This document shows positions 3,256-22,663 of a stretch of 64,000 nt of DNA, piece after piece (position 1 is the first letter of the stretch; each line of letters starts with the position of its first letter). The translations under genes were made by a program, and so were the position numbers. Source of the stretch: a phage; the sequence record PX853108.1. One strand, written 5' to 3'. The notes under the pieces were generated by a model, which saw nothing but the letters and a program-made list of their open reading frames with translations, was not told the DNA's origin and made no database searches.

Positions 3256-3613
3256 AGTAGTTATACATAGCTTTTACTAGCTTCTCTTTAATAACCTCAC
3301 CATGACAAGGTTTTGGATAACAGAAGCACTGTAAGGCTAATCCTTTCTCGTCAATGGCTTTATTACCCAGACGATTAAGTTCATCCAATACAACTGGATT
3401 CCCTTTATCAATCTGTTCTTGTAACCAGACTATATACTTAGCAATTACTTGCTCTCTGGTTCCATGTTTACCAATGACAAATGGATTACCTAATGGTGAA
3501 CCACGTCCAATATACTCACCTGATTTACCGTGATGTTTATTAACAATGATAATTGGACGGGCAGATACACCCAGTAAAGCATTGGTGTCATCACCTAATG
3601 ACATAATCTTCAT
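3233..3613 (-). CDS. DUF4326-like small protein (assignment from memory of motif)
   Basis: 126 aa; motif GRGSPLGNPF followed by CFCYPKPCHG; domain family recalled, not searched. Confidence 0.45.
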   Translation of the reverse strand: MKIMSLGDDTNALLGVSARPIIIVNKHHGKSGEYIGRGSPLGNPFVIGKHGTREQVIAKYIVWLQEQIDKGNPVVLDELNRLGNKAIDEKGLALQCFCYPKPCHGEVIKEKLVKAMYNYFVENPNG

Positions 3614-3924
3614 GGTTTAAGTACCTGGAATGGGAACACAGGACGTTTACTACGCCACTGGTTCATAGCTAATTCACTAGTTTCAGAACCATCATGTAAG
3701 TCATAGATAAATGAGATTACATAGTCTGGTTCTTCCGGGAAGTTCTCTGTAGAAAATGGTAGACCTGATTCTTTAAGGATAGGAATCAGTGGTGATTCAG
3801 CATTACAGTACAGAGTAAACTCTTCATTGAATGCTTGGCTTGTCTGAGATACATAATCAATATTACGCATCATCTTATCTACATCAGTAAATGTAGCATC
3901 ATGAACTACTAAAATAGTTTTCAT
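3610..3924 (-). CDS. hypothetical early protein
   Basis: 104 aa ORF, 4-nt overlap with neighbours. Confidence 0.45.
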   Translation of the reverse strand: MKTILVVHDATFTDVDKMMRNIDYVSQTSQAFNEEFTLYCNAESPLIPILKESGLPFSTENFPEEPDYVISFIYDLHDGSETSELAMNQWRSKRPVFPFQVLKP

Positions 3925-4112
3925 ACTGGCTCCTTGCCCGTAAATGTTACTACTTTTCCTGACATATTCCGTATGGTTACCTGTGCTGAGTTAACATCAG
4001 CAAATTGCTCTGCAACCCAGTTAAGCATCTCAGGGTCATTATTTAATTGTTTTTTAATCACAGTTTTACTATCTGCTGTTACTAAAGTGATTTCATAATT
4101 TTCAATATTCAT
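3921..4112 (-). CDS. hypothetical early protein
   Basis: 63 aa ORF, operon packing. Confidence 0.4.
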   Translation of the reverse strand: MNIENYEITLVTADSKTVIKKQLNNDPEMLNWVAEQFADVNSAQVTIRNMSGKVVTFTGKEPV

Positions 4113-4366
4113 ACTACTTTCTCCAGTGTTAGGTAGACGTTATTATCGACAATACTCAAATCACAGAAACCAATCTCTTCTTGTCTCCCAGAGGATACCC
4201 AGATATTGTTCTCCGTTAGCTTAGGCTTCTTAGAGAATCCTATTAATGAGGTATTAGCACTCTTATATTGACGAGGTAGTAATGCTATATACTTAACCCA
4301 ATGTGGTACTTGAATAGTATGTTTCATATATTCCACAGTCTTACCAGTAGGGTATGTAATAATCAT
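4109..4366 (-). CDS. hypothetical early protein
   Basis: 85 aa ORF, operon packing. Confidence 0.4.
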   Translation of the reverse strand: MIITYPTGKTVEYMKHTIQVPHWVKYIALLPRQYKSANTSLIGFSKKPKLTENNIWVSSGRQEEIGFCDLSIVDNNVYLTLEKVV

Positions 4367-4723
4367 TTAGTACCTCACAACATATACAGGTTTATTAAGC
4401 TTATTCATGATATCAATCATGTGCTTGGTTCCTTTGGATTTACCATCCCAGAAACATACAGCAGCATCTGCAAATTCACCCATTTCCTGGTTACGTATAT
4501 AACCAGCAGACTTTCTATGCTTATCCCAGTTAGCTGGGAAATTATGAATAGGCATTTTGTTATTAGCCCATAGGCTGTATGCAAGCATATCTGCTCCACG
4601 AGCCATACCACATACTAATTCAGGATTAGGGTCAATCTTACCTTTCTCCACTAAATCCATTAATACGGTAATCATTACTTGGATATTTACGAAGTCTCTG
4701 CCACCAGCTACTATTAGTTTCAT
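4367..4723 (-). CDS. SLOG/LOG-like (DUF2493-type) Rossmann-fold protein (assignment from memory of motif)
   Basis: 118 aa; MKLIVAGGRDF ... GMARGADMLAY ... FWDGKSKGTKHMI pattern typical of SLOG-superfamily small proteins. Confidence 0.45.
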   Translation of the reverse strand: MKLIVAGGRDFVNIQVMITVLMDLVEKGKIDPNPELVCGMARGADMLAYSLWANNKMPIHNFPANWDKHRKSAGYIRNQEMGEFADAAVCFWDGKSKGTKHMIDIMNKLNKPVYVVRY

Positions 4724-4941
4724 TTCTGATAACCTTCTATGAAGTTAGTACGACGAATAAGCTGAGTAGATGCCCTAACAGCCATCTGTTTGAACTCATC
4801 TTTGTGCTGATTTTCCAACACCTTAGCCCATTCTTCATGGTTCCGTCGTTTCTGTAGGATACGACTACACTTCTTATGATTAGCAACTCCTCTTCCTTTC
4901 TTACAGATTGGGCATATTCCATAATTAGTGCTGAACAACAT
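4720..4941 (-). CDS. zinc-finger-like small protein
   Basis: 73 aa; CPICKKG...HKKC motif. Confidence 0.4.
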   Translation of the reverse strand: MLFSTNYGICPICKKGRGVANHKKCSRILQKRRNHEEWAKVLENQHKDEFKQMAVRASTQLIRRTNFIEGYQK

Positions 4942-4946
4942 TTTGC

Positions 4947-5177
4947 TTACTCCTTGGTAATGTGATTGGCAGTATAGAAGTTATTAATCTCTGATTGGGT
5001 AGTATCAGCATAACCGGATACACCGGTTTCTTTATTAACCCATTTATCGAAGCTCTCACTGTATCCAGGCGTACTAACTTTTACCCATGTACTGGTTCCA
5101 AAGATTGTTTTCTTCTCTACTTCTGCACCAATACCACGTTCATTATCTGCAAATCGTATTACTTTATATTTAGCCAC
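4947..5177 (-). CDS. hypothetical early protein
   Basis: 76 aa ORF in array. Confidence 0.4.
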   Translation of the reverse strand: MAKYKVIRFADNERGIGAEVEKKTIFGTSTWVKVSTPGYSESFDKWVNKETGVSGYADTTQSEINNFYTANHITKE

Positions 5178-5478
5178 TTAGTGCCTCCATTAATATTTTA
5201 CGAATAACATTTACATCAGATTCAGTACCAATTAAACCAACAGGCTTACCTGTACTATCTGTTACAAAGGATGCAATCCTTTCCATCTCTGCTGTAATTA
5301 GCTTGTCACCACTAATAAGACGATTACGAAGGTAAGCTTCATAGGCTACTTCTATATCCTCTACTGTGGTTCTTTCATTACGAGCGAATGGATTACTTAA
5401 TGGGAATGGTAAGTGGATACGTATATTCCGGTCAGCTATCTTAGCTGAATGAGGAAGTATACAAATAATTTCATTCAA
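5170..5478 (-). CDS. hypothetical early protein
   Basis: 102 aa ORF in array. Confidence 0.4.
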   Translation of the reverse strand: MNEIICILPHSAKIADRNIRIHLPFPLSNPFARNERTTVEDIEVAYEAYLRNRLISGDKLITAEMERIASFVTDSTGKPVGLIGTESDVNVIRKILMEALSG

Positions 5479-5521
5479 GGTTATTTCTCCTATTTAAATA
5501 CATATCTAACTATTCAAGAAT

Positions 5522-5552
5522 AAAAAATAGGAGCCTCCTATTGGAGGACTCC
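5522..5552 (-). terminator. rho-independent terminator (minus strand)
   Basis: On minus strand CCUCC-AAUA-GGAGG hairpin followed by UAUUUUUUAUU. Confidence 0.5.
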
Positions 5553-5615
5553 CAGTTCTACTAATGCACCATAGGTTAACAGTACAAACATGGTTAATGT
5601 GATAGGCCAGTTCAT
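5538..5615 (-). CDS. candidate 25-aa hydrophobic peptide (MNWPITLTMFVLLTYGALVELGVLQ)
   Basis: Manually translated; start overlaps stop of upstream small ORF as ATGA; stop lies inside terminator stem. Confidence 0.2.
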   Translation of the reverse strand: MNWPITLTMFVLLTYGALVELGVLQ

Positions 5616-5743
5616 TTGAATGCATCCGGGTGATTGAAGGTAATAATCTTACGTACTGGTTCAGATGTCTGTTTCTTAGCAGCCAGTCTCTCCTTCATCT
5701 TCTGTACGTCAGATTTATTACCCATGATTAATGATTTACGCAT
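5612..5743 (-). CDS. candidate small basic protein (43 aa)
   Basis: Manually translated ORF; overlaps end of 5728-5910 ORF by 16 nt so start uncertain. Confidence 0.2.
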   Translation of the reverse strand: MRKSLIMGNKSDVQKMKERLAAKKQTSEPVRKIITFNHPDAFK

Positions 5744-5910
5744 GATTTAGTGCTCCACATAAAGTTAAAAGGTTTATTGTTACGTACAATTCTTACAACC
5801 ATTTGATAGCCATTGAGCTGCACAACACCATAGTGTCGTTTCTGTACACCAGTGTGATACCTACGAAAGATACACTCTTCAATGGCATCATCTATGTTAG
5901 TGAATATCAC
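5728..5910 (-). CDS. hypothetical early protein
   Basis: 60 aa ORF in track. Confidence 0.35.
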   Translation of the reverse strand: MIFTNIDDAIEECIFRRYHTGVQKRHYGVVQLNGYQMVVRIVRNNKPFNFMWSTKSCVNH

Positions 5911-5954
5911 TGGTTCCTCCGTAATATTGGCAGTTAAGCACAGGTGAATAACGT

Positions 5955-6107
5955 TTACACATCTCCACCTGGTTCATCTCTACCACGAGCATCACTCCCT
6001 ATGACTGCAAACATACCAATAATTACACCTACAGCTAATAACCATGGAAATGCAGCCACTAGCAGTATCATTAATAAAGTACACAGAATCTCTGCCAGTA
6101 GCTTCAT
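5955..6107 (-). CDS. candidate small membrane protein (50 aa, two hydrophobic segments)
   Basis: Manually translated MKLLAEILCTLLMILLVAAFPWLLAVGVIIGMFAVIGSDARGRDEPGGDV; RBS AAGGATAA upstream. Confidence 0.3.
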   Translation of the reverse strand: MKLLAEILCTLLMILLVAAFPWLLAVGVIIGMFAVIGSDARGRDEPGGDV

Positions 6108-6111
6108 AGCA

Positions 6112-6375
6112 TTATCCTTTGTGTAGTTTACGGATTTGTTTACGAGTAGGTTTAGCTACAAAGAAGTGGTCATAGCATTGACCATTCTCATCTTTTACAG
6201 ATACCTGCCAACGAGCATCATAAGTCATCTTACTACCGTACATGGCCATTATGTTAATCAGCCTAGTTGGATTATAACGGTTACATATTGTACGCATAAT
6301 GGTTACTCCTTCATCTAATATAAATCTATATCTATCTGGATACTGTTTCAGTACCCTTCGTCTAAAGATACTCAA
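6112..6375 (-). CDS. hypothetical early protein
   Basis: 87 aa ORF in track. Confidence 0.4.
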   Translation of the reverse strand: MSIFRRRVLKQYPDRYRFILDEGVTIMRTICNRYNPTRLINIMAMYGSKMTYDARWQVSVKDENGQCYDHFFVAKPTRKQIRKLHKG

Positions 6376-6398
6376 AAAGTAGAAATAGCTTATCGTCT

Positions 6399-6430
6399 AG
6401 TTAAAAATAAAAGACTCCCCGAAGGGAGTC
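6399..6430 (-). terminator. rho-independent terminator (minus strand), UUCG tetraloop
   Basis: GACUCCC-UUCG-GGGAGUC followed by UUUUAUUUUUAA, just downstream of gene 6441-6821. Confidence 0.6.
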
Positions 6431-6440
6431 TAGTGATTGA

Positions 6441-7372: not shown

Positions 7373-7482
7373 GATGATATCTCCAATAGTTAATGAATAA
7401 TGAGGTTGCCTGTGGATGCACAGGCACATCGTAAGGGATACATGTCCAATGGCTCATGAGATAAGGAGCTTACGATCTCGCA

Positions 7483-7504
7483 TATCCGTAACATGCGGAG
7501 CATG
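7483..7504 (-). promoter_or_regulatory. N4 virion-RNAP-type hairpin promoter (ATATCC-GTAA-CATGC GGA GCATG); predicted +1 at 7487
   Basis: 5-bp stem, GGA loop, -8G/-11G, +1/+2 CC on template strand. Confidence 0.65.
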
Positions 7505-7960
7505 TAGACGAACGAAGTTCGTCAAAAATGTTTTATAAAGATGTAGGCGCGTGCGCAAGCCGAAGGCTTGCGTGCGTGCCGAAGATATGCACATAAGCCC
7601 ATGGGCTTGCTTGCAAGCCTAGTGTGTGTAACGTGTAAGGTGGGGTAGGGTAGTGGCTACACGGTCAACATACCGGGGGGGATGGTTGAGTGTAAGGGTG
7701 TAGCCCTAGGTGTAACACTATAGCCATACATAGCTATCACAATTTTGACATGCAAAAATATTATAGGCACTATCTCTATAAGCAGATAACTTTGAGGTAC
7801 TAACCTGAAAGATGGTTGAGGTATCTATCCTCTATTCATCATAGCGTTTGATACTTAAAACCTCATACAGCTTACCATTTACAAGTAATGGTCCTCCCAC
7901 TTCTATGAAAGCCAGACTGTGTACTATCACTGGTTCAGGTAAGCCCTTGACTGTTACATA
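7505..7960. other. non-coding, locally GC-rich, hairpin-dense region; candidate genome terminus / terminal-repeat or origin region
   Basis: No ORF; hairpins GACGAAC-GAA-GTTCGTC (7507-7523), GCAAGCC-GAA-GGCTTGC (7555-7571), AAGCCC-ATG-GGGCTT; G-run ccggggggg; sits just upstream of the outermost early promoter. Confidence 0.3.
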
Positions 7961-10691: not shown

Positions 10692-11381
10692 ATGAGTGAA
10701 CTAACTAAGCAGCAGATTATTAATGCCTTACCTGCTAACTTCAAAAACAGTGTGACCCAGGAGTTGGTAGACACAATCAACAACATAACCCAAGACCAAC
10801 TGGTTGCTGAGTCCTTCCGTGAAAACTTTATCTCCTACTCTGGTGTAATGAAGGAAGGTAAGTTTAAGACACAGGACTACATGAATGCAGTTCAGTATGT
10901 GACTTACAAACACATGGGTTACTCAAATAAGGAAGCCTACTTCAAGACATTCCCTAACCGACAAGCAGAACTTGTTGCACGAGGAACCAGTGAGAAAGAC
11001 ATTAGTGCTTATGTATCCGCTTACCACAGAGGTAAGCTAGTTAACCTCATCATGGAACAAAGTTTGGTTCCAGTGTGGATTGTGAACCAGGACAACTATC
11101 AGAAGGCAATCAACGTTCAGGTTGAACTGATGACTACAGCAGCAAGTGAAAAAGTAAGATGTGATGCAGCTAACTCTATCCTTACTCACTTAGCTAAACC
11201 GAAAGACCAGGTAACGAATATCAATCTGGACTTGAGAGAGAACTCTGGATTAACTGACCTCAAGGCAACACTTGCTGCATTAGCTGAACAGCAAATTAAC
11301 GCAATCAATAGTGGTGTACCTACCAAAGAGGTTGCTGGTTCTAAACTAGTACGTGCAGATGAGGACATTACAGATGTCTGA
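10692..11381 (+). CDS. hypothetical protein upstream of terminase; possible small terminase subunit
   Basis: 229 aa; position immediately 5' of large terminase with ATG/TGA overlap; no diagnostic motif. Confidence 0.3.
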   Translation: MSELTKQQIINALPANFKNSVTQELVDTINNITQDQLVAESFRENFISYSGVMKEGKFKTQDYMNAVQYVTYKHMGYSNKEAYFKTFPNRQAELVARGTSEKDISAYVSAYHRGKLVNLIMEQSLVPVWIVNQDNYQKAINVQVELMTTAASEKVRCDAANSILTHLAKPKDQVTNINLDLRENSGLTDLKATLAALAEQQINAINSGVPTKEVAGSKLVRADEDITDV

Positions 11382-12963
11382 GTTAATTAAACAGGAACTA
11401 GATGAATGGCTAGACCAGGTGGATTACTCCCACCTTAATTCGTCTAACTATGTTCCTAGTCAGTTTGCTCTTACCTTTGCCAACTTTATTAAGTTGGTTA
11501 ATGGTAAAGAGGGTGAATCCAACAAAACACCTCCAGTTCACCTGAAGATGCTGGATAAGATGATTAGTCCTAACCAGTATGTAGTTAACCTGTGCTTCCG
11601 TGGTGCAGGTAAGACTGCTGTGTTTATGGAATACTTTACTTTGTTCCTGGCAGTGTTTGGACACTTACCAAGTCTGGGTAAAGTAGAAGGGATGATTTAC
11701 GTATCTGACTCAATGGATAACGGTGCTAAGTCTGCACGTAAGAACATTGAGTTTCGTTATAAGAATAGTGAGTTCCTACAGCAATGGATACCTGAAGCTA
11801 CCTTTACGGATAACCTATTAGAGTTTCGTAATGTAGAAGGACATCGACTTGGTGTTAAGCTGTTCGGTGCTAAGACAGGTCTTCGTGGTACGAAGATATA
11901 TGGTAAACGCCCAACACTCTGTGTACTGGATGACTTGATTAGTGATGGTGATGCTAACTCCAAGACTAGCATGGAAGCTATTAAGGATACTGTTTATAAA
12001 GGTGTGAACCATGCTCTTGACCCAACCCGTCGTAAAGTAATCTTCAACGGTACTCCCTTTAATAAGGAAGACATTATCATTGAAGCGGTAGAGTCTGGTG
12101 CATGGGATGTCAACGTATGGCCTGTGTGTGAGAAGTTCCCTTGTAGTAGGGAAGAATTTCAGGGTGCATGGGATGACCGTTTCTCTTACGACTATATTAA
12201 AGCCCAATATGACATGGCAGTTAAGACGGGTAAGCTGGCAGGCTTCTATCAGGAACTTATGCTCCGTATTAGCTCTGAAGATGAGAGACTGGTTCAGGAT
12301 AGTGAAATTAGATGGTATAGCAGACAGCAACTATTAAGGATGAAGTCCTGCTACAACTATTACATTACAACTGACTTTGCTACTTCGGAGAAACAGACCA
12401 GTGACTACAGTGTCATATCAGTTTGGGCTTATAGTTCTAATGGAGATTGGTTCTGGGTTGATGGTGTGGCTAATCGTCAGCTTATGGATAAAAACTTTGA
12501 TGATCTGTTCCGTCTGGTTCAAGAATACCAACCACAAAACGTTGGAGTCGAAATCACAGGACAACAGGGTGGATTCATCTCTCTCCTTCAGAAAGAAATG
12601 ATTAACCGTAATGTCTTCTTTAACTTTGCATCCTCCGAGGGTGGTAAGCCTGGCATACGTCCTGTAACCTCTAAGCTGTCACGTTTTAACCTGGTAGTTC
12701 CTTGGTTCAAAGCTGGTAAGATGTACTTCCCAGAAGAGTTGAGAGATTCAACTATCATGGGTCTGTTCATGGGGCAGATTAAACTAGCTACCATTAATGG
12801 AATCAAAGGTAAGGATGACTGTATTGATACTATCTCTATGCTGGGTTATCTCAATCCTTGGAAACCACAAGCAGGTATGACTATGGTGGATAACAAGGGT
12901 GACCCAATGTGGGATGACGAAGAAGAAGATAGTGTTAACCCACTACGTTCATACATTGTGTGA
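11353..12963 (+). CDS. terminase large subunit
   Basis: 536 aa; Walker A-like CFRGAGKT and Walker B-like LCVLDDL; head of structural operon; alternative start at 11374. Confidence 0.7.
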   Translation: MQMRTLQMSELIKQELDEWLDQVDYSHLNSSNYVPSQFALTFANFIKLVNGKEGESNKTPPVHLKMLDKMISPNQYVVNLCFRGAGKTAVFMEYFTLFLAVFGHLPSLGKVEGMIYVSDSMDNGAKSARKNIEFRYKNSEFLQQWIPEATFTDNLLEFRNVEGHRLGVKLFGAKTGLRGTKIYGKRPTLCVLDDLISDGDANSKTSMEAIKDTVYKGVNHALDPTRRKVIFNGTPFNKEDIIIEAVESGAWDVNVWPVCEKFPCSREEFQGAWDDRFSYDYIKAQYDMAVKTGKLAGFYQELMLRISSEDERLVQDSEIRWYSRQQLLRMKSCYNYYITTDFATSEKQTSDYSVISVWAYSSNGDWFWVDGVANRQLMDKNFDDLFRLVQEYQPQNVGVEITGQQGGFISLLQKEMINRNVFFNFASSEGGKPGIRPVTSKLSRFNLVVPWFKAGKMYFPEELRDSTIMGLFMGQIKLATINGIKGKDDCIDTISMLGYLNPWKPQAGMTMVDNKGDPMWDDEEEDSVNPLRSYIV

Positions 12964-12969
12964 GGAACC

Positions 12970-13680
12970 ATGCAGAAATTATCGGAAGTATATCGTGGCT
13001 TGGCACTAAGTACCTTGAAGGGTACTGGTGCAGTCACTGATGACAGATTAGGCATTGAACCAGATAGCAAGCCTGAAATATTGGCAGCTATTAATGAAGG
13101 GCTGGTACGACTACATAGTCGTTTCCCTTTAAGGACTAATAGCTGCATTGTGGAGATGAAGGAAGGTCGTACTGATTATCCCCTTCAATCCAGATATGCT
13201 TACTCCAAATTTATTAAGCCTACTCTTGAGATTCAATACCCATATATCATGGATGGGTTCATGAAACCTTTCCAGGATGATGTCATTAAAATCTTAAATG
13301 TGTTTGATAACTCAGGGAATCGACGTAGACTGAACGACGATTCAGACCCTCATGCAATCTTTACTCCTCGGCCTGATACTATTCAGTGTATGCGACCTCG
13401 ACACTTCGAGGCACTTAACGTAACTTATCAAGCTAAGCACCCTGTACTTACGGGTGATGAAGAACAGGAAGTTGATTTAGCTGATACGCTAATGACGGCA
13501 CTTCATAACTGGGTGGGTTATCGTTACCACACTGGTTTGAATACTCCGGAAGCTAATGCTAAGGCAGCAGAGTATCTGCAAACATATGAAAGCATCTGTG
13601 GTGAGGTTGTTGATTACGACCTGGCTAATGGAAGTATTTCAATTACCGAAACTAAATTTGAACAACGAGGATGGCGATGA
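12970..13680 (+). CDS. virion-associated protein, function unknown
   Basis: 236 aa; structural operon position; ATGA overlap with next gene. Confidence 0.45.
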   Translation: MQKLSEVYRGLALSTLKGTGAVTDDRLGIEPDSKPEILAAINEGLVRLHSRFPLRTNSCIVEMKEGRTDYPLQSRYAYSKFIKPTLEIQYPYIMDGFMKPFQDDVIKILNVFDNSGNRRRLNDDSDPHAIFTPRPDTIQCMRPRHFEALNVTYQAKHPVLTGDEEQEVDLADTLMTALHNWVGYRYHTGLNTPEANAKAAEYLQTYESICGEVVDYDLANGSISITETKFEQRGWR

Positions 13681-16358
13681 ACGCACATACCCCCTTTGAT
13701 GCAAAACAGGATTGGACCAATCCTTACTGCCAAAACAGTTCCAATGACCCAATGGTAGATGCATTACTTGGTAATGCTTACCATGTGGTTCGTACTGTTT
13801 ACTGTAACTTGGGTAACCTTAAACTTTTGTATGATTTCCTGAACCAGTATGGAATGGTTCTTGGTGTACAGTCAGAGGCAGAACTTAAAGCATTAACTAC
13901 TAAAGCTAAGTATGCACGTATCTATGGCTTTTCTCGTACAGGTGACCGGCAGGTAACTGACTACCTGTATGTGGAAGGTGATCGTACAGGCATTATCCCT
14001 GATGACCCAAAGGCAACAGGTTCATGGATTACTGTTGCTACTTCTGGTTCCACCGGTGGTGGTACTTCTTCCAGCGAAGGTGCTTACATTCCTTGGGTAT
14101 ACAGCAATGGTTCCGCTACTGGTGGGGAAACCACAATCAACGTACCAGATGGTACGGTAGGTGTGCCTTTCATTATTGTTAATGGCGACATGCAGTATGT
14201 AGGCCGTGGCTTTGAGTTTAATATTGACAGTCTGTCTGTAACTCTGGCTCAACCTTTAGAAGAAGGGGATGAAGTAGTATTCCTTCTGACAGGAGTGCCT
14301 GCTGTACCAGATAATCCTAACGTTAATGACTGGGTTCAGATTAACTGGTTATACAACAATGGTGCTGCTGTAGGTGGTGAACAGGTTATTACTATTCCTT
14401 ACACCTTCCAGTCTATTCCGGCTGTGTATAAGAATGGACTACGTTTGTATAAAGGATTAACTACTGAGTCCTATACTGCTGACCCAGATAACCAACGTAT
14501 TTTTCTTACCGAACCACTGACAACCAATGACCGTCTGATTGTACAGATTGGAGGGGAAACACAGGTACTGGAAACATCAGACCATACTATTCAGGAAGTT
14601 GCTCGTGCAGCTAACGTTAAGGATAGTGAGGTAATTCTTAGTACTGACGTTACTCAATTCTTAAATGGTAAGAAGATTGTTTATTCTGTTAGTGAGCAGA
14701 AGGCTTATGGGTTACCTTCTTTGCCTACCAATGTGTACATTCAATCCGTAGAGAACGGTAAGCTTACATACTCCCCTGGAGCCGTGGAAGTAGATTTAGT
14801 TCCTATCCCTGGTTCCTCTGAAGAATTAAAAAATAGTTTAATATCTGATACTGGGGCTGCCATAGTGAGCACTAGTTCTGGTGCAACTGTACAAGCAGAA
14901 CTTGATAATATTACAGAGAAATTGGGGGACTCTTACCCAAATATAAGAGGTAATATTAATACACCTGCAACTGGGTATGTATTCCAACCATATACCCGCT
15001 ATTACGGCGACCATGACATTCGATACATTGGGGGCGGTAATCCTAAGTCAACTAAGCGATTTAAAAAAGATGGGCATGAAACAATAACTCTTACTGGGAT
15101 TTCTACGACGGCATCTAATCCTCCAACCATATCGGTGGATACAGTTGCATATGTAAACCCTGCTAGTGCTGACCCTGATGATAGAACCTTCCCTGCAAGT
15201 ATTACCTTTAACGGCCTAGCCTTTGTAGGTGATGATGATGAGACGGGGGAAGTTGGATTAACCATCCTTCAGGGTCAGAATTTCCAGATTCAAGATTGTG
15301 GTTTTAGTAAGACTAAACTGGCAACTTGGTTTGTAGATGTATGGATGACCAGTGTGAGTAATTCCACCTTCTTTGGGCAGGTTCGCCATGATGGAGGTAC
15401 TAGCTGTTTCTACACTAACTGTTATGCCACTGTACATGATGCCTCAGTACCACTAGGTGCATACAGAATTTCTAATATTCAGTATGGTAATATGACCTCT
15501 TGTGCCTCGGATGGGACGATAAATGGTGCTTACTGGTTTAACGGTAATAATGGATTAACAGTTAATAACTGTGGGTCAGAAGTTCCTACCACAATGGACA
15601 GGAACTATGGTACTGCTGCGCACTTTGAAAAAAGTAATGAGATGGTACTTACCAATTTTTATACTTTACCCGCAGAAGGTACTAACATGCTCATATCAGT
15701 AAAAGATGATAATGAGTTAGTATTCAATAACATGATGGTATACGGTAGCCCTGATAGATACAGCCGGGATTTCTGGTTTACAGGCACGAACAATAACTTG
15801 ATTATTAATGGGGGCATCTTTGGTAATCGAGGAGACTTCCCACGTATTGCCACAGACCATGCAGGAAACACTGTAATTTACAATGCTGTTAATGGTAACT
15901 CATACATATGGAAAACTAAAACAGCGGCCATCACTGCTGTATGGGAACCAAAGTACCTTTCACAGACATTGGATACTACATCTGATGTCGTATTTACGAA
16001 CAGCGGTCCTGTAACAGGAGGAACACGAGATATTAAATTCACTAAGAATGGTAATACTGCTACTGTTGAATTTGATATTACTATTCCAAGTGTTTCTGGT
16101 GCAGTGGGACAACTTCGTATAAATGGTTTGCCTTATGCTGCTGCTCAACAAGCTAGTGGTAGTGTAGCTATAGCCATTGGTTTAGGTACGGGTGTTGGTA
16201 ATATTTCTTGTGCCGTTATCAGAAATGGGACTGAGATACTGTTCTATAAATCTACAACAGCAGGCGGTGTATCATCCGCACTTGTGCCATCAGACCTAAC
16301 CGATGGATGCAGCCTTCGCGGTAGTATTACCTACTCCTGTGTATCCGATTGGGATTAA
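13677..16358 (+). CDS. tail fibre / tailspike-like receptor-binding protein
   Basis: 893 aa; Gly/Ser/Thr-rich; internal tandem approx 70-aa repeat (IPWVYSNGSATGGETTINVP / INWLYNNGAAVGGEQVITIP); C-terminal NLIINGGIFGNRGD module shared with next gene. Confidence 0.55.
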   Translation: MNAHTPFDAKQDWTNPYCQNSSNDPMVDALLGNAYHVVRTVYCNLGNLKLLYDFLNQYGMVLGVQSEAELKALTTKAKYARIYGFSRTGDRQVTDYLYVEGDRTGIIPDDPKATGSWITVATSGSTGGGTSSSEGAYIPWVYSNGSATGGETTINVPDGTVGVPFIIVNGDMQYVGRGFEFNIDSLSVTLAQPLEEGDEVVFLLTGVPAVPDNPNVNDWVQINWLYNNGAAVGGEQVITIPYTFQSIPAVYKNGLRLYKGLTTESYTADPDNQRIFLTEPLTTNDRLIVQIGGETQVLETSDHTIQEVARAANVKDSEVILSTDVTQFLNGKKIVYSVSEQKAYGLPSLPTNVYIQSVENGKLTYSPGAVEVDLVPIPGSSEELKNSLISDTGAAIVSTSSGATVQAELDNITEKLGDSYPNIRGNINTPATGYVFQPYTRYYGDHDIRYIGGGNPKSTKRFKKDGHETITLTGISTTASNPPTISVDTVAYVNPASADPDDRTFPASITFNGLAFVGDDDETGEVGLTILQGQNFQIQDCGFSKTKLATWFVDVWMTSVSNSTFFGQVRHDGGTSCFYTNCYATVHDASVPLGAYRISNIQYGNMTSCASDGTINGAYWFNGNNGLTVNNCGSEVPTTMDRNYGTAAHFEKSNEMVLTNFYTLPAEGTNMLISVKDDNELVFNNMMVYGSPDRYSRDFWFTGTNNNLIINGGIFGNRGDFPRIATDHAGNTVIYNAVNGNSYIWKTKTAAITAVWEPKYLSQTLDTTSDVVFTNSGPVTGGTRDIKFTKNGNTATVEFDITIPSVSGAVGQLRINGLPYAAAQQASGSVAIAIGLGTGVGNISCAVIRNGTEILFYKSTTAGGVSSALVPSDLTDGCSLRGSITYSCVSDWD

Positions 16359-16412
16359 TATTTATATAGCCTCCGTAACTGGAGGCTTACTTAGAAAAAC
16401 AAAGAGGTTGTT

Positions 16413-18296
16413 ATGAACGAAATGTTCTCACAAGGTGGTAAAGGTTCAACTGGTATTCTTACCAATAAGCAAGCCATTGCCCGTAAGTTTGGTGTTAAGC
16501 AGAATGAAGTAGTCTACTTTTCTGTAGGTGTAGACTTAGGTGGATACAAAGTCATTTATGATAAGACTACTCAACGTGCTTACTCATTGCCCGTACTTCC
16601 AGTAGGAACCACTGCTGTAAGTCTCAGTGAGCAGGCAGTCCTGGTTCATTCAGCAGGTACAGTTGATTTGGGTGAACTGGCTGCTACACGTAGGGAATTC
16701 GTAAGCCTGTCTGATACGTTTGCTACTGGTTTGGTAGTGAATACTCGAAATGAGATTCTGATGCATGATGGTATAGGTTATACCTATTTAGGTGCTCTAC
16801 CTGTAACTATTGCCGCAGGAACTAACCCTGTCGGTAATTCTGACTGGAAGGCTCAGACAGACCCATATTTACGCACAGACTTGGCTAGTTCTGATGTAAA
16901 CAAAGGCGCATCGATTATCAACACTACTTCTGGTTTAAACGTTCAGGAGTCGCTAAACACCCTGAGGTTATCGGCTACCGCGAGTTCTATTTCGGCCAAT
17001 CTGGCTTTAGGCTCCGCAAAAGTTATTGACTCCGTATCCAGTGCCGATTCTTTTATCCTCCCATCCTTCGCTACGTTAGAAGGGGGAGATAATTTCTTAA
17101 CCGGCTTCATAGGAACCTCATACCAGAAAAACAAAACTATTCGTAAATCAAGTAATACAACTGTTACGTTAACAAACCAAGACCCCAGCGCTGGGAGTCA
17201 ATCCGTGGACGCGGTTGTATACCAAGACCCGGCATGGCCAGGTGGCGCTGTATTTCCTCAAAAATCGGCATTAAAGCATATTACTATTGAGGGTAACTCT
17301 GCTGCTAACCCTAGTCAGGCCGGTTTTTTTGTATTACAAGGCGGAGTAGTTGACATTGAGAATGTGGATTTCATCAACTGCACCTATGCGATATGGGCTA
17401 AAGATATCTGGCAAAGCCGCATCTCCAGAGTATTCTCCAACAACGGAAAGATTCGCCTTGATAACGGTACGTCTGTTGTACTAACAGGATGTGGGTTGGC
17501 TTCTGCCGATACTACAAGAACAGGCGCATTTGATCTTACGGGCATGAAGTATTCAACGCTTATTGGTTGTACATCAGACCATACTACCAATACTGCCTAT
17601 TCATTCGATGCTTGTGAAGGAATTGTGCTGGACGCTTGCGGATGTGAGGGGGCCAACACCACAACAGCTAATTCTGGAACGGCTCTGGCTTTTAAAGATA
17701 ACAATCATAATATAGTGGTCAACGCTTTCACATGTTTCCCGGTAGCTGACCAAGGCCCCGCTTTGATATCATTCGGTAGTAACAACCAGGTAACCCTAAA
17801 CTCGTTCGAGGTTATACCAGGAATTACATATAATGGGGACATATACCTTTATGGGGCTAATTCTCATATCACTATAAACGGGGGACGCTTTGGTTCAGAC
17901 GGCAATGCTATGCCTATTGTAACGGCTTCGGCTAATGCCATTGGCTCCACTATAACATATCATCACCGCAGGGGTATTACGTATACATACACAGTAACAG
18001 CCGCAGGAATTGTAACTCCGGTACAACATTTCCGCCCTATTGTGTCTGCTGTTATTAACTCTGATGGTACTGTTAGAAGCGGTTTCGGCGTTAATAATGT
18101 AACTAAAAATAGCACAGGTTCTTACACTATTAATTTCACTAGTGAGATTGCCACGGGATATGCGATCCAACATTTATCCTCATTTGGATTTGTGCAGGTG
18201 AGCGTTTTCGACTCAACAACACTAACGGTATTATTCCTTGACCCAAGCAAAACACCAACTGATACGGACTTCTCGGTTAATATAGCTGGCTGGTAA
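16413..18296 (+). CDS. second tailspike-like protein
   Basis: 627 aa; shares C-terminal module HITINGGRFGSDGN and ITIEGNSAANP beta-helix-like repeats with 13677-16358. Confidence 0.55.
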   Translation: MNEMFSQGGKGSTGILTNKQAIARKFGVKQNEVVYFSVGVDLGGYKVIYDKTTQRAYSLPVLPVGTTAVSLSEQAVLVHSAGTVDLGELAATRREFVSLSDTFATGLVVNTRNEILMHDGIGYTYLGALPVTIAAGTNPVGNSDWKAQTDPYLRTDLASSDVNKGASIINTTSGLNVQESLNTLRLSATASSISANLALGSAKVIDSVSSADSFILPSFATLEGGDNFLTGFIGTSYQKNKTIRKSSNTTVTLTNQDPSAGSQSVDAVVYQDPAWPGGAVFPQKSALKHITIEGNSAANPSQAGFFVLQGGVVDIENVDFINCTYAIWAKDIWQSRISRVFSNNGKIRLDNGTSVVLTGCGLASADTTRTGAFDLTGMKYSTLIGCTSDHTTNTAYSFDACEGIVLDACGCEGANTTTANSGTALAFKDNNHNIVVNAFTCFPVADQGPALISFGSNNQVTLNSFEVIPGITYNGDIYLYGANSHITINGGRFGSDGNAMPIVTASANAIGSTITYHHRRGITYTYTVTAAGIVTPVQHFRPIVSAVINSDGTVRSGFGVNNVTKNSTGSYTINFTSEIATGYAIQHLSSFGFVQVSVFDSTTLTVLFLDPSKTPTDTDFSVNIAGW

Positions 18297-18300
18297 AACT

Positions 18301-18328
18301 AAGGCCCCAAAGGGGGCCTTTCTTGTAT
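18301..18328 (+). terminator. rho-independent terminator
   Basis: AAGGCCCC-AAAG-GGGGCCUU followed by UCUUGU. Confidence 0.6.
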
Positions 18329-18703
18329 AGAGTTTACTGTTTGCATTACCCTAATAGATACTGCTGTTAGGGTGATTACTTGTCCGGATATGTTAAACAT
18401 ATCTAGCTGAATACCATCCACCATGAATGGGTCTGTTGAACCAAGTGTGTATGTAGCTAATACATTGTCTCTGTTAGCAATGTCCGTACCTTGTACCTTA
18501 ACACTAACATCTGAACATACTACTGTAGTTCCATTGGTTCATCTTGTTTGTGTTGCCATTCCCTTACCGTGCCAGCACTTCTTATAATAGTTCCTAGGGC
18601 AGACACTATGTCTGGATGTACCTCATCATACTAAGTATTATCTAATGGTCATCTTATGATATGACCCTATTGGGGTTCCTAACTACACAACTACGGTAAT
18701 ATT

Positions 18704-19033
18704 ATGAATGAATCGGGTGAACTGCTTCTAGTCAGACTGGAGGAACGATTGAAGACTCTGTTTGATAACCAGGCAAGAGACAGACAGGACCGTGAGAAAC
18801 TGGAGGAAACTCTGGTAGAACTACGGGATTCAATCAATGACATAGGTAATAGATTAAAGAATGTGGAGGATAGCTTAGCTAAGAATGAACCTACTATTGA
18901 AGAGTTCATCACCATTAAGCATAAAGTTGTTGGTGCTGGAATTTTTGGTAAGTGGGTATGGGCTGGGGCAGGTGCAATTATCGGTGTATTAGCTGCTGCA
19001 AGACGGGAGATATTCGCATGGTTCGCAGGCTGA
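18704..19033 (+). CDS. membrane protein with N-terminal coiled coil and C-terminal TM helix; lysis-associated candidate
   Basis: 109 aa; C-terminal VVGAGIFGKWVWAGAGAIIGVLAAA; precedes holin. Confidence 0.4.
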   Translation: MNESGELLLVRLEERLKTLFDNQARDRQDREKLEETLVELRDSINDIGNRLKNVEDSLAKNEPTIEEFITIKHKVVGAGIFGKWVWAGAGAIIGVLAAARREIFAWFAG

Positions 19034-20392: not shown

Positions 20393-22663
20393 ATGGAACA
20401 CCAAGACACTTTTAAGCCTTTACCAGACCCGGCTCAATCAGAGAAGTTAACGGACTGGAAGAAGGAACCAAGTATCCAATTGCTGAAAGGTGATTTGGAA
20501 TCGGCTAAACCTGCTCACGATGCAATCATGGCTCAGATTCGTGAGTGGAATGATTTAATGGAAGTTAAGGGTAAGGCTAAACCCCCAAAGGTTAAAGGAC
20601 GTTCGCAAGTCCAACCTAGACTGGTTCGCCGTCAGGCAGAATGGCGTTATGCACCATTGTCTGAACCATTCCTCTCATCCAATAAACTCTTTAAGGTAAC
20701 TCCTGTTACTTTTGAAGATGAGTTAGCTGCACGTCAGAATGAATTAGTTCTTAACTACCAATTCCGTACCCAGCTTAATAAAGTAAAACTAGTGGATGAT
20801 TACGTACACAGTGTCGTAGATGACGGTACTGGTATTGCTCGTATTGGTTGGGAACGTAAGACTGTTAAGATTAAAACAGAAACCCCAGTCTTCCAGTTGT
20901 ATCCAATTGAGAACCAGGAACAAGCAGATATTCTTCAGCAGGCTTTACAGCTTCAGGCAGAGAATCCTCGTGAGTATGATGAAACAATGCCGGAAGATAT
21001 TAAGGAAGCTGTTAACTACTTCAATGAAACTGGAGAAGCTACCTATGCAATCCAGACAGGTGTTACTGAAGTAGAAGTTGAAAAAGCATTGGTTAACAGA
21101 CCTACTGTTGAAATGCTTAATCCTAATAACGTAGTCATTGACCCAAGCTGTAATGGTGATTTGGATAAAGCTCTGTATGCAGTTATCTCATTTGAGACTT
21201 GCAAAGCAGACCTCATGAAGAACAAGGACCGTTATCACAACCTGGATAAGATTGACTGGGAAAGTTCTAGTCCTATGACTGACCCAGACCATGAAAGTAA
21301 AACTCCTGGTGACTTCCAGTTTAAGGATGCACTTCGTAAGAAAGTCATTGCTTATGAATACTGGGGATTCTACGACATTAATGATGATGGTTCACTGGAA
21401 CCAATTGTTGCTACCTGGATTGGTTCTACCCTTATTCGTATGGAGAAGAACCCATTCCCTGACGGTAAGTTACCGTTGGTAGTTGTTCCTTACATGCCCC
21501 GTAAACGCGAACTCTACGGTGAAGCTGATGCTGAACTGTTAGGAGATAACCAAGCAATTCTTGGTGCAACTATGCGTGGGATGATTGACCTATTAGGTAG
21601 AAGTGCAAACGGTCAACGTGGTTATCCTAAAGGGATGTTAGATACCCTGAACCGACGTCGATATGATGATGGACAAGACTATGAGTACAACCCAATGCAG
21701 GGCAATCCTAGTCAGGCCATTATGGAGCACAAGTTCCCGGAATTACCTCAGTCAGCAATAGTAATGACTCAGATGCAGAACCAGGAAGCAGAAGCACTAA
21801 CTGGTGTTAAAGCATTCTCTGGTGGTGTAACTGGTGCAGCTTACGGAGATGTGGCTGCTGGTATTCGTGGTGCACTTGATGCAGCATCCAAACGTGAGAT
21901 GGCAATTCTTCGCCGATTAGCTAAAGGTATGGCAGACATTGGTACTAAGATTTGTGCAATGAATGCTGTGTTCTTATCTGAGAAAGAAGTAGTACGTATT
22001 ACTAATGAACAGTATGTAGAAATTAACCGAGAAGACCTTAAAGGTAATTTCGATATTGAGGTTGATATTAATACTGCTGAAATTGATAACCAGAAATCCC
22101 AGGACTTGAGCTTCATGGTTCAAACATTAGGTAATACAGTTGACCAGACTATTACGTTATCTCTTGTAGCTAAGATTGCAGAACTTAAACGTATGCCAGA
22201 CCTTGCACATGAATTACGTACCTGGAAACCACAACCAGACCCTATGGAAGAACAGCTTAAGCAATTAGCAATTCAGAAAGCACAGCTTGAGAATGAAGAG
22301 TTGAAAAGTAAGATTGCACTTAATAATGCTAAGGCTAAAGAAACTATTTCTAGTGGTGACCTTAAAGACCTGGATTATCTGGAACAAGAATCTGGTACTA
22401 AACATGCTCGTGATATGGAAAAACAAAAAGCACAATCTCAAGGAAACCAGAACCTTCAAATAACTAAGGCGTTGACAACACCTACTAAAGAAGGTGAAAC
22501 TACCCCCAACATATCTGCTGCTGTCGGATATAACGCTTTGACTAACGGGAACTCTTTACAGGAACGTGACTTAGCTGCACAGCAAGACCCGACTTATTCA
22601 CTAAGTTCCCAGTATTATGACCCTAGCCAAGACCCAGCATCGGCTCTTGGTATGAACTTATAA
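20393..22663 (+). CDS. portal protein
   Basis: 756 aa; size and position between lysis cassette and capsid genes as in N4-like phages. Confidence 0.6.

Follow-up and report, generated by a model that had tools for sequence, protein, structure and literature searches.

Phages of the genus Gamaleyavirus normally carry two tailspikes (PMC11990801). According to the passage of PMC8825819 that cites Prokhorov 2017, binding of the G7C spike gp63.1 to gp66 requires XD3 and not XD2, and published homology analysis places both domains in gp66 (PMC8825819). In phage B2, gp49, a protein of 410 aa that consists of the N-terminal region only, was co-purified and its structure solved with gp48 (PMC11654681). 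The tailspike encoded directly 3' of the J-like protein in Kagunavirus isolates is described as an O-antigen-targeting receptor-binding protein (RBP), and exchange of receptor-binding domains of the pectin-lyase-like type among Kagunavirus, Gamaleyavirus and Lederbergvirus has already been published (PMC11990801).

Here, we analysed a 64,000-nucleotide stretch of phage DNA (record PX853108.1), referred to below as the window. Except for the spike C-termini, its DNA is 91–95% identical to Gamaleyavirus genomes. On its sequence, the source phage is a Gamaleyavirus, a G7C-like member of the Schitoviridae (an N4-related coliphage). The order terminase, 236-aa protein, long spike, short spike, lysis genes and portal is common to the window and to its Gamaleyavirus relatives ZQ2, E20, F22, L004 and L005, and in all of them the long-spike gene lies between the terminase/adaptor genes and a gp63.1-type gene. 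The locus contains the following features:

12970–13680, + strand: virion structural/adaptor-like protein of 236 aa, encoded upstream of the spikes (phrog_2125 'virion structural protein', E = 6.6e-91)
13671–16358, + strand: gene A, gp66-type primary (branching) tailspike; open reading frame of 895 aa from the ATG at 13671
16413–18296, + strand: gene B, gp63.1/CBA120 TSP1-type secondary tailspike; open reading frame of 627 aa
18301–18320, + strand: terminator-like hairpin rich in GC, AAGGCCCC-AAAG-GGGGCCTT, with a T-rich tail behind it (consensus scan, pattern match only)

The 236-aa protein matched Pfam SU10_adaptor just under the 27-bit cut-off (26.2 bits, E = 1.3e-5). Its position is conserved in ZQ2, E20, L004 and L005, and it is probably a tail component adjoining the spike genes. 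Both spike reading frames named in the initial annotation are real. For gene A, an alternative ATG at 13677 yields the 893 aa given there, and this start appears likelier than 13671 because a GAGG lies 6 nt upstream of it (13667–13670) and because it overlaps the stop codon of the preceding gene as ATGA. The terminator-like hairpin begins 5 nt past the stop codon of gene B. Exact look-up of protein A, in its 893- and 895-aa forms, and of protein B in a collection of 15 billion proteins returned no identical entry, so the phage itself is absent from that collection.

Protein A could be divided into six segments (residues numbered on the 895-aa form):

13671–14075, + strand: A aa 1–~135, N-terminal particle-anchor domain; aligns to the N-termini of Moo19 gp82 and B2 gp49
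14085–14297, + strand: A aa 139–209, T4 gp10-like XD2, first repeat copy (self-alignment and PDB matches)
14337–14555, + strand: A aa 223–295, XD3, second repeat copy and presumed docking site for B (self-alignment, PDB matches, analogy with G7C)
14592–14858, + strand: A aa 308–396, D1-type head domain, homologous to B aa 20–104
14847–15932, + strand: A aa 393–754, neck and right-handed parallel beta-helix, A-type receptor-binding, presumed glycan-cleaving module
15933–16355, + strand: A aa 755–895, C-terminal beta-sandwich domain, all-beta and confidently modelled

Using phmmer, A aa 1–410 matched Moo19 gp82 (9d80, E = 6e-156) and B2 gp49 (9d83, E = 2e-138), and the protein matched phrog_12242 'tail protein' at E = 3.7e-282. 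The gp66-type particle-anchor region is thus present by homology to Moo19 gp82 and B2 gp49, with its anchoring role drawn from the G7C gp66 literature (PMC8825819). Within it, A aa 3–79 gave weak matches to 9lc0 ('60 kDa protein') and phrog_29955 ('appendage'). The tandem repeat of about 70 aa that had been reported in this protein is real. Whole-protein self-BLAST did not list it, and it was demonstrated by aligning the two segments and shuffling them: A 139–209 and A 223–295 are 31% identical over 72 aa (40 bits; z = 15.6 over 500 shuffles, with a best shuffled score of 54 vs 102 observed). The PDB matches to this part were 6w4q (CBA120 TSP2, XD2-XD3-D1; A 139–400, E = 8e-31), 7rej (CBA120 TSP4-N; A 91–210, E = 5e-13) and 7xy1 (A 137–204, E = 2.5e-11). 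Judged from these alignments, the repeat corresponds to XD2 and XD3, a pair of successive jelly-roll domains of the T4 gp10-like type behind the anchor. The same pair is found in Moo19 gp82, B2 gp49 and CBA120 TSP2/TSP4. The earlier reading of the repeat as a duplication in a host-range determinant is not supported: it is an ancient, conserved docking platform and not a recent duplication.

Protein B is shorter and has three segments:

16413–16892, + strand: B aa 1–~160, D1-D2 head (attachment) domains (PDB matches to aa 1–~160 only)
16899–18011, + strand: B aa 163–533, neck and right-handed beta-helix, B-type module (AF2, Foldseek)
18012–18293, + strand: B aa 534–627, C-terminal beta-sandwich domain, all-beta, pLDDT 82–94

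Residues 1–~160 of B matched CBA120 TSP1 (4oj5, E = 2.9e-55), B2 gp48 (9d84, E = 1.8e-54) and G7C gp63.1 (4qnl, E = 1.9e-53) by phmmer. Pfam gave no match for A. For B it gave Tail_spike_N (PF18668) at aa 93–139 with 15.8 bits, under the 25-bit cut-off, as well as a sub-threshold Beta_helix match and a CAT_RBD match that we rejected as spurious. Because Pfam matches were absent or sub-threshold, the families of both proteins were assigned from the structural models and from their matches in PDB and PHROG. The assignment of both as receptor-binding tailspikes in the initial annotation is supported.

The two proteins had been described as sharing a C-terminal module and having unrelated N-termini, and comparing them segment by segment moved both boundaries. 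The shared module is highly significant: A 393–754 and B 163–533 are 29% identical over 380 columns (BLASTP E = 3e-34; Smith-Waterman z = 49.9, 200 shuffles), and profile-profile comparison of the two subfamilies gave E = 4e-65 with 100% probability. The two motifs originally pointed out, at A 709 and B 485, align with each other. The module is, however, the central beta-helix and not the C-terminus. The extreme C-termini, A 755–895 and B 534–627, have no pairwise similarity (z = -0.8); hhalign reaches weakly into these domains, and on the pairwise score we rejected the idea that they are shared as well. At the other end, A 1–135 and B 1–160 showed no similarity (z = 1.0), and only A 1–~300 is without a counterpart in B. 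The D1 head is common to both proteins (A 308–396 vs B 20–104, 36% identity, BLASTP E = 2e-7, z = 14.4), and from D1 through the beta-helix A 308–754 is colinear with B 20–533. At the DNA level, the two beta-helix modules have no similarity. The helices belong to one pectin-lyase-fold family, in which A and B represent two old subfamilies that are about 29% identical.

The AF2 models of the two proteins reached pLDDT values of 87 and 80, with B aa 163–533 mostly above 85, and the distal parts of both are predicted to fold as right-handed parallel beta-helices. Foldseek matched the B helix best to CBA120 TSP3, TSP1 and TSP4, and also to the Sf6 tailspike and AS12 gp42, while catalytic-domain identity to the CBA120 spikes was only 10–22%. 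Across both subfamilies 21 columns are invariant, four of them acidic: D490, D614, E637 and D700 in the A-type module, corresponding to D266, D389, E412 and D476 in the B-type module, each invariant in 39 sequences. Also invariant in both subfamilies is a pair of motifs, C-x-S-D and C-G-x-E, with a spacing of 23 residues; in B it includes the invariant cysteines C386 and C409. The distance from D389 to E412 is about one helix rung. This spacing would match the usual active-site geometry of tailspikes, making the two residues candidates for catalysis. The beta-helix modules are expected to bind glycans and probably to cleave or modify them.

We then compared the locus with other phages to see where the modules occur. 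In gene A, a DNA mosaic breakpoint lies inside D1 at about 14750–14800, where similarity to ZQ2, E20, L004 and L005 stops (14749–14804). The breakpoint in gene B lies at about 16870–16990: similarity to ZQ2 stops at 16870 and similarity to PaulScherrer starts at 16989. At the protein level, the junction in A falls at about residue 375 and that in B at about residues 153–192. Beyond them, each module has its own distribution. L004 and L005 carry the module of B (96% and 82% identity) with an unrelated gp66 C-terminus, while in E20 and F22 the gp66 C-terminus is A-like (42% identity) and the second spike is unrelated. Protein B is 96% identical to P0012, encoded on a 72.5-kb Gamaleyavirus-like contig. 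Spikes on Kagunavirus contigs are 86% identical to it over B 89–627 and 93% identical over the module, and spikes with a P22-type head-binding domain (PF09008) are 64% identical over the module. The best match of the A module is 65% identical, a level at which the same specificity is not guaranteed, and lies in an E. coli protein whose head-binding domain is of the P22 type (PF09008); none above 65% was found among 5.8 billion proteins, and an IMG/VR scan with the C-terminal module of A found no relative. Two syntenic Kagunavirus contigs, L008 and L009, carry an A-type and a B-type module, respectively, at the same single tailspike locus, with flanks 85–88% identical. Of the C-terminal domains, that of A is conserved within the A family, and that of B co-occurs with the B-type helix in its homologues. 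With identities of 50–65% for the A-type relatives on other chassis (Kagunavirus, PF09008 spikes) and 64–93% for the B-type ones, the data indicate that A and B fall into two clades, each mixing several chassis.

The modular exchange proposed from the sequence is therefore strongly supported, with both modules found on the N-terminal chassis of other phage groups at identities far above that between A and B. Since close relatives have only one of the two modules, and since identity to other phages exceeds that between A and B, the two beta-helices were most likely acquired independently. The adjacency of genes A and B and the colinearity of A 308–754 with B 20–533 could also be explained by a duplication inside the phage lineage followed by divergence, making the helix modules paralogues. 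Such an origin is very improbable. A and B share only 29% identity, against 86–96% for B and 65% for A with other spikes; close Gamaleyavirus relatives hold one module without the other; and the modules have sharp DNA breakpoints around each and lack DNA similarity to one another. Duplication within the phage as the origin of the helices was rejected on these distribution and identity data.

Taken together, we assign a probability of roughly 85% to the reading that this cassette is the branched two-tailspike host-recognition set of a G7C-like phage, whose modules were acquired separately and which likely recognizes two glycans. Protein A, presumably a trimer, would use its first ~135 residues to anchor to the tail, present the jelly-rolls XD2 and XD3, and continue as a tailspike of its own made up of the D1 head and neck, the right-handed beta-helix and the C-terminal domain. 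A particle anchor is missing from protein B, whose D1-D2 head would dock on the XD3 platform of A; we infer this docking because both partners are homologous to the G7C and B2 pairs. Each tail position would thus bear two different spikes. Recombination at the head/neck boundary probably brought in each module separately, out of a pool shared by Kagunavirus, Stephanstirmvirinae and Drexlerviridae phages and by spikes with a P22-type head-binding domain. Two different surface polysaccharides would then be recognized, most probably two O-antigen types, corresponding either to two host serotypes or to two glycan layers on one host.

Two points of this reading can be questioned. One or both beta-helices might be non-catalytic binding modules, that is, adhesins and not depolymerases, as no curated enzyme family was matched. 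We regard this as unlikely, given that the acidic residues are invariant in 39 sequences, that D389 and E412 appear to sit one rung apart, and that the nearest structural neighbours are enzymatically active tailspikes. The other point concerns the glycan bound by B. E. coli C is a rough strain. Phages that were propagated on rough hosts, namely PaulScherrer (K-12) and Veterinaerplatzvirus (an E. coli C derivative), also have B-type modules, so the O-antigen assumption is weaker for B. B could instead target a conserved enterobacterial glycan (colanic acid, enterobacterial common antigen (ECA) or another exopolysaccharide), with A being serotype-specific. The B module is 87% identical to the lateral fibre bas60_0027 of PaulScherrer, isolated on the O-antigen-less K-12; its identity to a protein of Veterinaerplatzvirus phages, whose isolation host DSM 12242 is a derivative of strain C (ATCC 13706), is 57%; and its identity to proteins with an Enterobacter vonholyi or Citrobacter freundii annotation is 76–77%. 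Neither the BASEL papers nor the Aionostat preprint contains anything specific on bas60_0027. We nevertheless consider a conserved target for B quite improbable. PaulScherrer and Veterinaerplatzvirus have several RBPs, and this module need not be the one serving the laboratory host; the role of ECA-targeting fibre in the group of PaulScherrer is attributed to a different, deacetylase-bearing protein (PMC8594841); on Kagunavirus contigs the B-type module forms the only spike, and the locus concerned has been described as O-antigen- or capsule-specific; and O-antigen structures are common to different genera of Enterobacterales. A 'general plus specific' pair, in which B would take a conserved exopolysaccharide and the otherwise rare module of A would confer O-serotype specificity, is equally doubtful. 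If true, the paralogy of the helices would reflect a catalytic chemistry that the two share and use on different layers of glycan.

For the proposed branched pair, the closest described system is G7C gp66/gp63.1 (Prokhorov et al. 2017; PDB 4QNL), which shares the genus-level backbone and gene order and the assembly logic proposed here, a second spike hung on the first, with A and B probably binding through XD3. The first ~400 residues of A (anchor, XD2, XD3, D1) align with Moo19 gp82 (9D80) and B2 gp49 (9D83), and the first ~160 of B with G7C gp63.1 and B2 gp48 (9D84). The distal parts differ: esterase domains are found in G7C gp63.1, Moo19 gp82 and B2 gp48 (PMC11654681), whereas both distal parts here are modelled as beta-helices. 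The alignments to 4qnl, 9d84 and 9d80 end at ~160 (B) and ~410 (A), the gp63.1-type SGNH esterase C-terminal domain is absent from A and B, and phmmer found no significant PDB match for the distal parts of either protein. Here the two distal modules are also homologous to each other, unlike in ZQ2, E20, L004 and L005. In CBA120 (PDB 4OJ5, 6W4Q, 5W6F, 5W6H and 7REJ), TSP2 and TSP4 (XD2-XD3-D1-neck-beta-helix) have the domain grammar of A, and TSP1 and TSP3 (D1-D2-neck-beta-helix) that of B; CBA120 is, however, a myovirus with four spikes instead of two, a different anchor domain and an XD1 domain that is absent here. The spikes of Kagunavirus (Guernseyvirinae) and those with PF09008 carry the same A- or B-type beta-helix and C-terminal domain on other anchors, either a short Kagunavirus-specific N-terminus or the PF09008 head-binding domain, and the Kagunavirus contigs examined have a single spike at the locus where the window has a branched pair. 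The A-type module may represent an uncharacterized glycan specificity, since no protein among the 5.8 billion exceeded the identity given above. The exact junctions and the candidate catalytic residues could be used in phage engineering and host-range prediction. Set against these systems, the layout is already well described, and since both the branched architecture and such module exchange have been published, no concept is changed. The locus provides a worked example of how host range changes in Gamaleyavirus, with the scaffold of anchor, XD2/XD3 and D1/D2 heads kept fixed and the distal beta-helix modules swapped with unrelated phage groups at defined breakpoints.

Two adjacent tailspike genes, A (gp66-type) and B (gp63.1/CBA120 TSP1-type), lie between the terminase and lysis genes of the window:

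11353-12963: terminase large subunit
12970-13680: 236-aa virion/adaptor-like protein
13671/13677-16358, plus strand: gene A
16413-18296, plus strand: gene B
18301-18320: terminator-like hairpin
between this hairpin and the portal: lysis genes
20393-22663: portal

The order terminase, 236-aa protein, A, B, lysis genes, portal is common to phages ZQ2, E20 and F22 and to the metagenomic relatives L004 and L005. Judged by sequence, the 64-kb window is of Gamaleyavirus type (G7C-like N4 relatives, Schitoviridae), with 91-95% DNA identity to Gamaleyavirus genomes, PD205, Bp4, PD38, ZQ2 and E20 among them. In a DNA search of phage records, no single record covered more than 46% of 13000-19000. Similarity to relatives breaks off within A at 14749-14804, that to ZQ2 breaks off within B at 16870, and similarity to relatives picks up again past the B stop codon.

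Both ORFs are as the initial annotation described, including the 893-aa start of A. Gene A has two in-frame ATGs, at 13671 and 13677, and we prefer the latter because of its spacing from the GAGG at 13667-13670 and because it overlaps the upstream stop in an ATGA. Annotations of relatives start at the counterpart of 13677, whereas the Moo19 gp82 used for expression was the longer form. Residues of A are counted here from 13671 (893-aa form, minus 2). In the 54-bp gap between A and B, we spotted by eye a 7-bp inverted repeat (16370-16389, AGCCTCC-GTAACT-GGAGGCT) that has no T-run after it and was absent from the terminator-scan output.

Comparison of the two proteins revealed that their beta-helices, A 393-754 and B 163-533, are 29% identical over 380 columns (E = 3e-34; z = 49.9 against shuffles). 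Aligning the A subfamily (n = 12) with the B subfamily (n = 27) by hhalign gave E = 4e-65 at 100% probability. The shared module first noticed is therefore significant, but it had been misplaced at the C-terminus. The two motifs originally quoted, at A 709 and B 485, do align with each other, and colinearity with B spans A ~300 to 754; pairwise, however, the C-terminal domains (A 755-895, B 534-627) showed no detectable similarity (z = -0.8 against shuffles), nor did the N-termini A 1-135 and B 1-160 (z = 1.0 against shuffles). Given this lack of detectable similarity in the terminal domains, it is the central beta-helix that the two proteins share. The N-termini had been called unrelated, which holds for these outermost parts but not for the D1 head domain (B 20-104 versus A 308-396; 36% identity, E = 2e-7, z = 14.4).

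The tandem repeat of ~70 aa reported in A is also real (A 139-209 versus 223-295; 31% identity, 40 bits, z = 15.6). A 1-410 aligns to the solved Moo19 gp82 (9d80, E = 6e-156) and B2 gp49 (9d83, E = 2e-138), A 139-400 to CBA120 TSP2 (6w4q, E = 8e-31) and A 91-210 to TSP4-N (7rej, E = 5e-13). In the nomenclature of PMC8825819, this front half reads as anchor domain, XD2, XD3 and D1, and because of these matches the repeat is identified as the two T4 gp10-like jelly-rolls XD2 and XD3. This duplication is ancient and kept across gp66/CBA120-type spike families, rather than one in a host-range determinant as had been proposed. In Shigella phage B2, the 410-aa gp49 is this region alone, and it was co-purified and solved as a complex with gp48 (PMC11654681). 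For G7C, the passage of PMC8825819 citing Prokhorov 2017 states that gp63.1-gp66 binding needs XD3, not XD2.

The head of B, up to residue ~160, matches CBA120 TSP1 (E = 2.9e-55), B2 gp48 (1.8e-54) and G7C gp63.1 (1.9e-53). A PDB sequence search gave no further match to these proteins past ~160, so their esterase domain is missing from B. In phage PaulScherrer (MZ501100), a 101-aa ORF annotated 'tailspike protein' (bas60_0028, 7452-7757) lies directly downstream of a fibre bearing a B-type module and is 72% identical in DNA to the D1-coding part of gene B (16464-16683). This ORF may encode a TSP1-type head domain, either free-standing or left over, and might mark a past exchange of modules.

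AlphaFold2 models from 39-sequence alignments (pLDDT 87.2 for A 380-895; 79.5 for B, good over 100-627 and poor in D1) show a right-handed parallel beta-helix followed by a beta-sandwich in both proteins, in line with the beta-helix-like fold first suggested; the top Foldseek matches were CBA120 TSP3/1/4, Sf6 TSP and Det7. Across both subfamilies 21 columns are invariant, including D266, D389, E412, D476, C386 and C409 of B, equivalent to D490, D614, E637, D700, C611 and C634 of A. Because 23 residues, roughly one rung of the helix, separate the C-x-S-D and C-G-x-E motifs, D389/E412 in B and D614/E637 in A are plausible candidate catalytic pairs.

We then compared the distribution of the two modules. 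The B module (aa 161-627) is 95% identical (96% for the full-length protein) in P0012, which is the second spike of L004, a Gamaleyavirus-like contig of 72.5 kb, 90-93% in 600-aa proteins of ~44-kb contigs, 87% in the lateral tail fibre bas60_0027 of PaulScherrer (Stephanstirmvirinae), 76-77% in proteins annotated in Enterobacter and Citrobacter, 63-65% in spikes with a P22-type head-binding domain (PF09008) and 57% in a Veterinaerplatzvirus (Drexlerviridae) protein. A search of 5.8 billion proteins returned only 11 relatives of the A module, the closest (65%) an E. coli protein with the PF09008 domain and others bearing TSP1-type or different N-termini; the closest phage records were the gp66-type proteins of E20 and F22 (42%). 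In L004 and L005, B's module is accompanied by an unrelated gp66 C-terminus; in E20 and F22, an A-like module is accompanied by an unrelated second spike. Two syntenic Kagunavirus contigs with flanks 85-88% identical each have one tailspike locus, in the same position immediately after a J-like protein; L008 carries an A-type module there and L009 a B-type one. PMC11990801 describes the tailspike of this locus as the RBP by which its Kagunavirus isolates target O-antigen. Modules on other N-termini, and relatives with one module but not the other, bear out the module exchange initially proposed. From this distribution and the higher identity to spikes of other phages, we conclude that the two helices entered the phage by separate recombination events; they belong to sister subfamilies of old standing that circulate among coliphages. 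Local duplication as their source was rejected because of the module identities and the distribution in relatives.

In F22 (L007, OP870143), the gp66-type 'tail fiber' (3321-6437, 1038 aa) is the 891-aa protein of E20 plus an in-frame tandem duplication of ~378-524, covering the neck and beta-helix start. Each copy shares 99.8% identity with E20, so the duplication either happened very recently or is an artefact of assembly. Downstream of B, ~200 bp (18347-18545; sole ORF 54 aa, 18423-18587) of the 400-bp non-coding gap from the hairpin to the next gene (18704) are missing in L004 and mostly missing in ZQ2. That next gene, a 109-aa ORF (18704-19033) directly preceding the holin and endolysin genes, has counterparts annotated 'tail length tape-measure protein'. 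Read by eye, it has a charged, helix-like N-terminal part and a hydrophobic C-terminal segment. Its length falls far short of what a tape measure needs, and the label is probably wrong.

The analysis itself shows the homology, the order of the domains, their fold, the breakpoints and how the modules are distributed; what we infer is the trimer, the docking, the catalysis and which glycans are targeted. Most likely, A would trimerise, join the tail and display XD3, onto which the B head would dock. Each branch would bind surface polysaccharide and probably cleave or modify it, which would draw the virion up to the outer membrane. It is conceivable that B has a conserved target other than O-antigen, because some phages with B-type modules were grown on K-12 or on DSM 12242, a strain derived from C (ATCC 13706). 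E. coli C lacks O-antigen. K-12 lacks it too (PMC11990801). These phages carry several receptor-binding proteins, however, so their hosts argue only weakly for such a target. Two different modules most likely confer two glycan specificities, in line with the proposal made for Gamaleyavirus and SP6 (PMC11990801).

The anchor, XD2/XD3, D1/D2 head and gene position all agree with the branched tailspikes of the G7C gp66/gp63.1 and CBA120 types, and both distal domains belong to the pectin-lyase-fold tailspike class; the esterase domain that is a feature of G7C gp63.1 is lacking from this cassette. For Gamaleyavirus, N-termini that stay conserved while the distal modules can be exchanged have been published already, as has the sharing of such RBDs among Kagunavirus, Gamaleyavirus and Lederbergvirus (PMC11990801). 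Only two points are particular here: the helices of both branches are detectably homologous, and the A-type module is rare.
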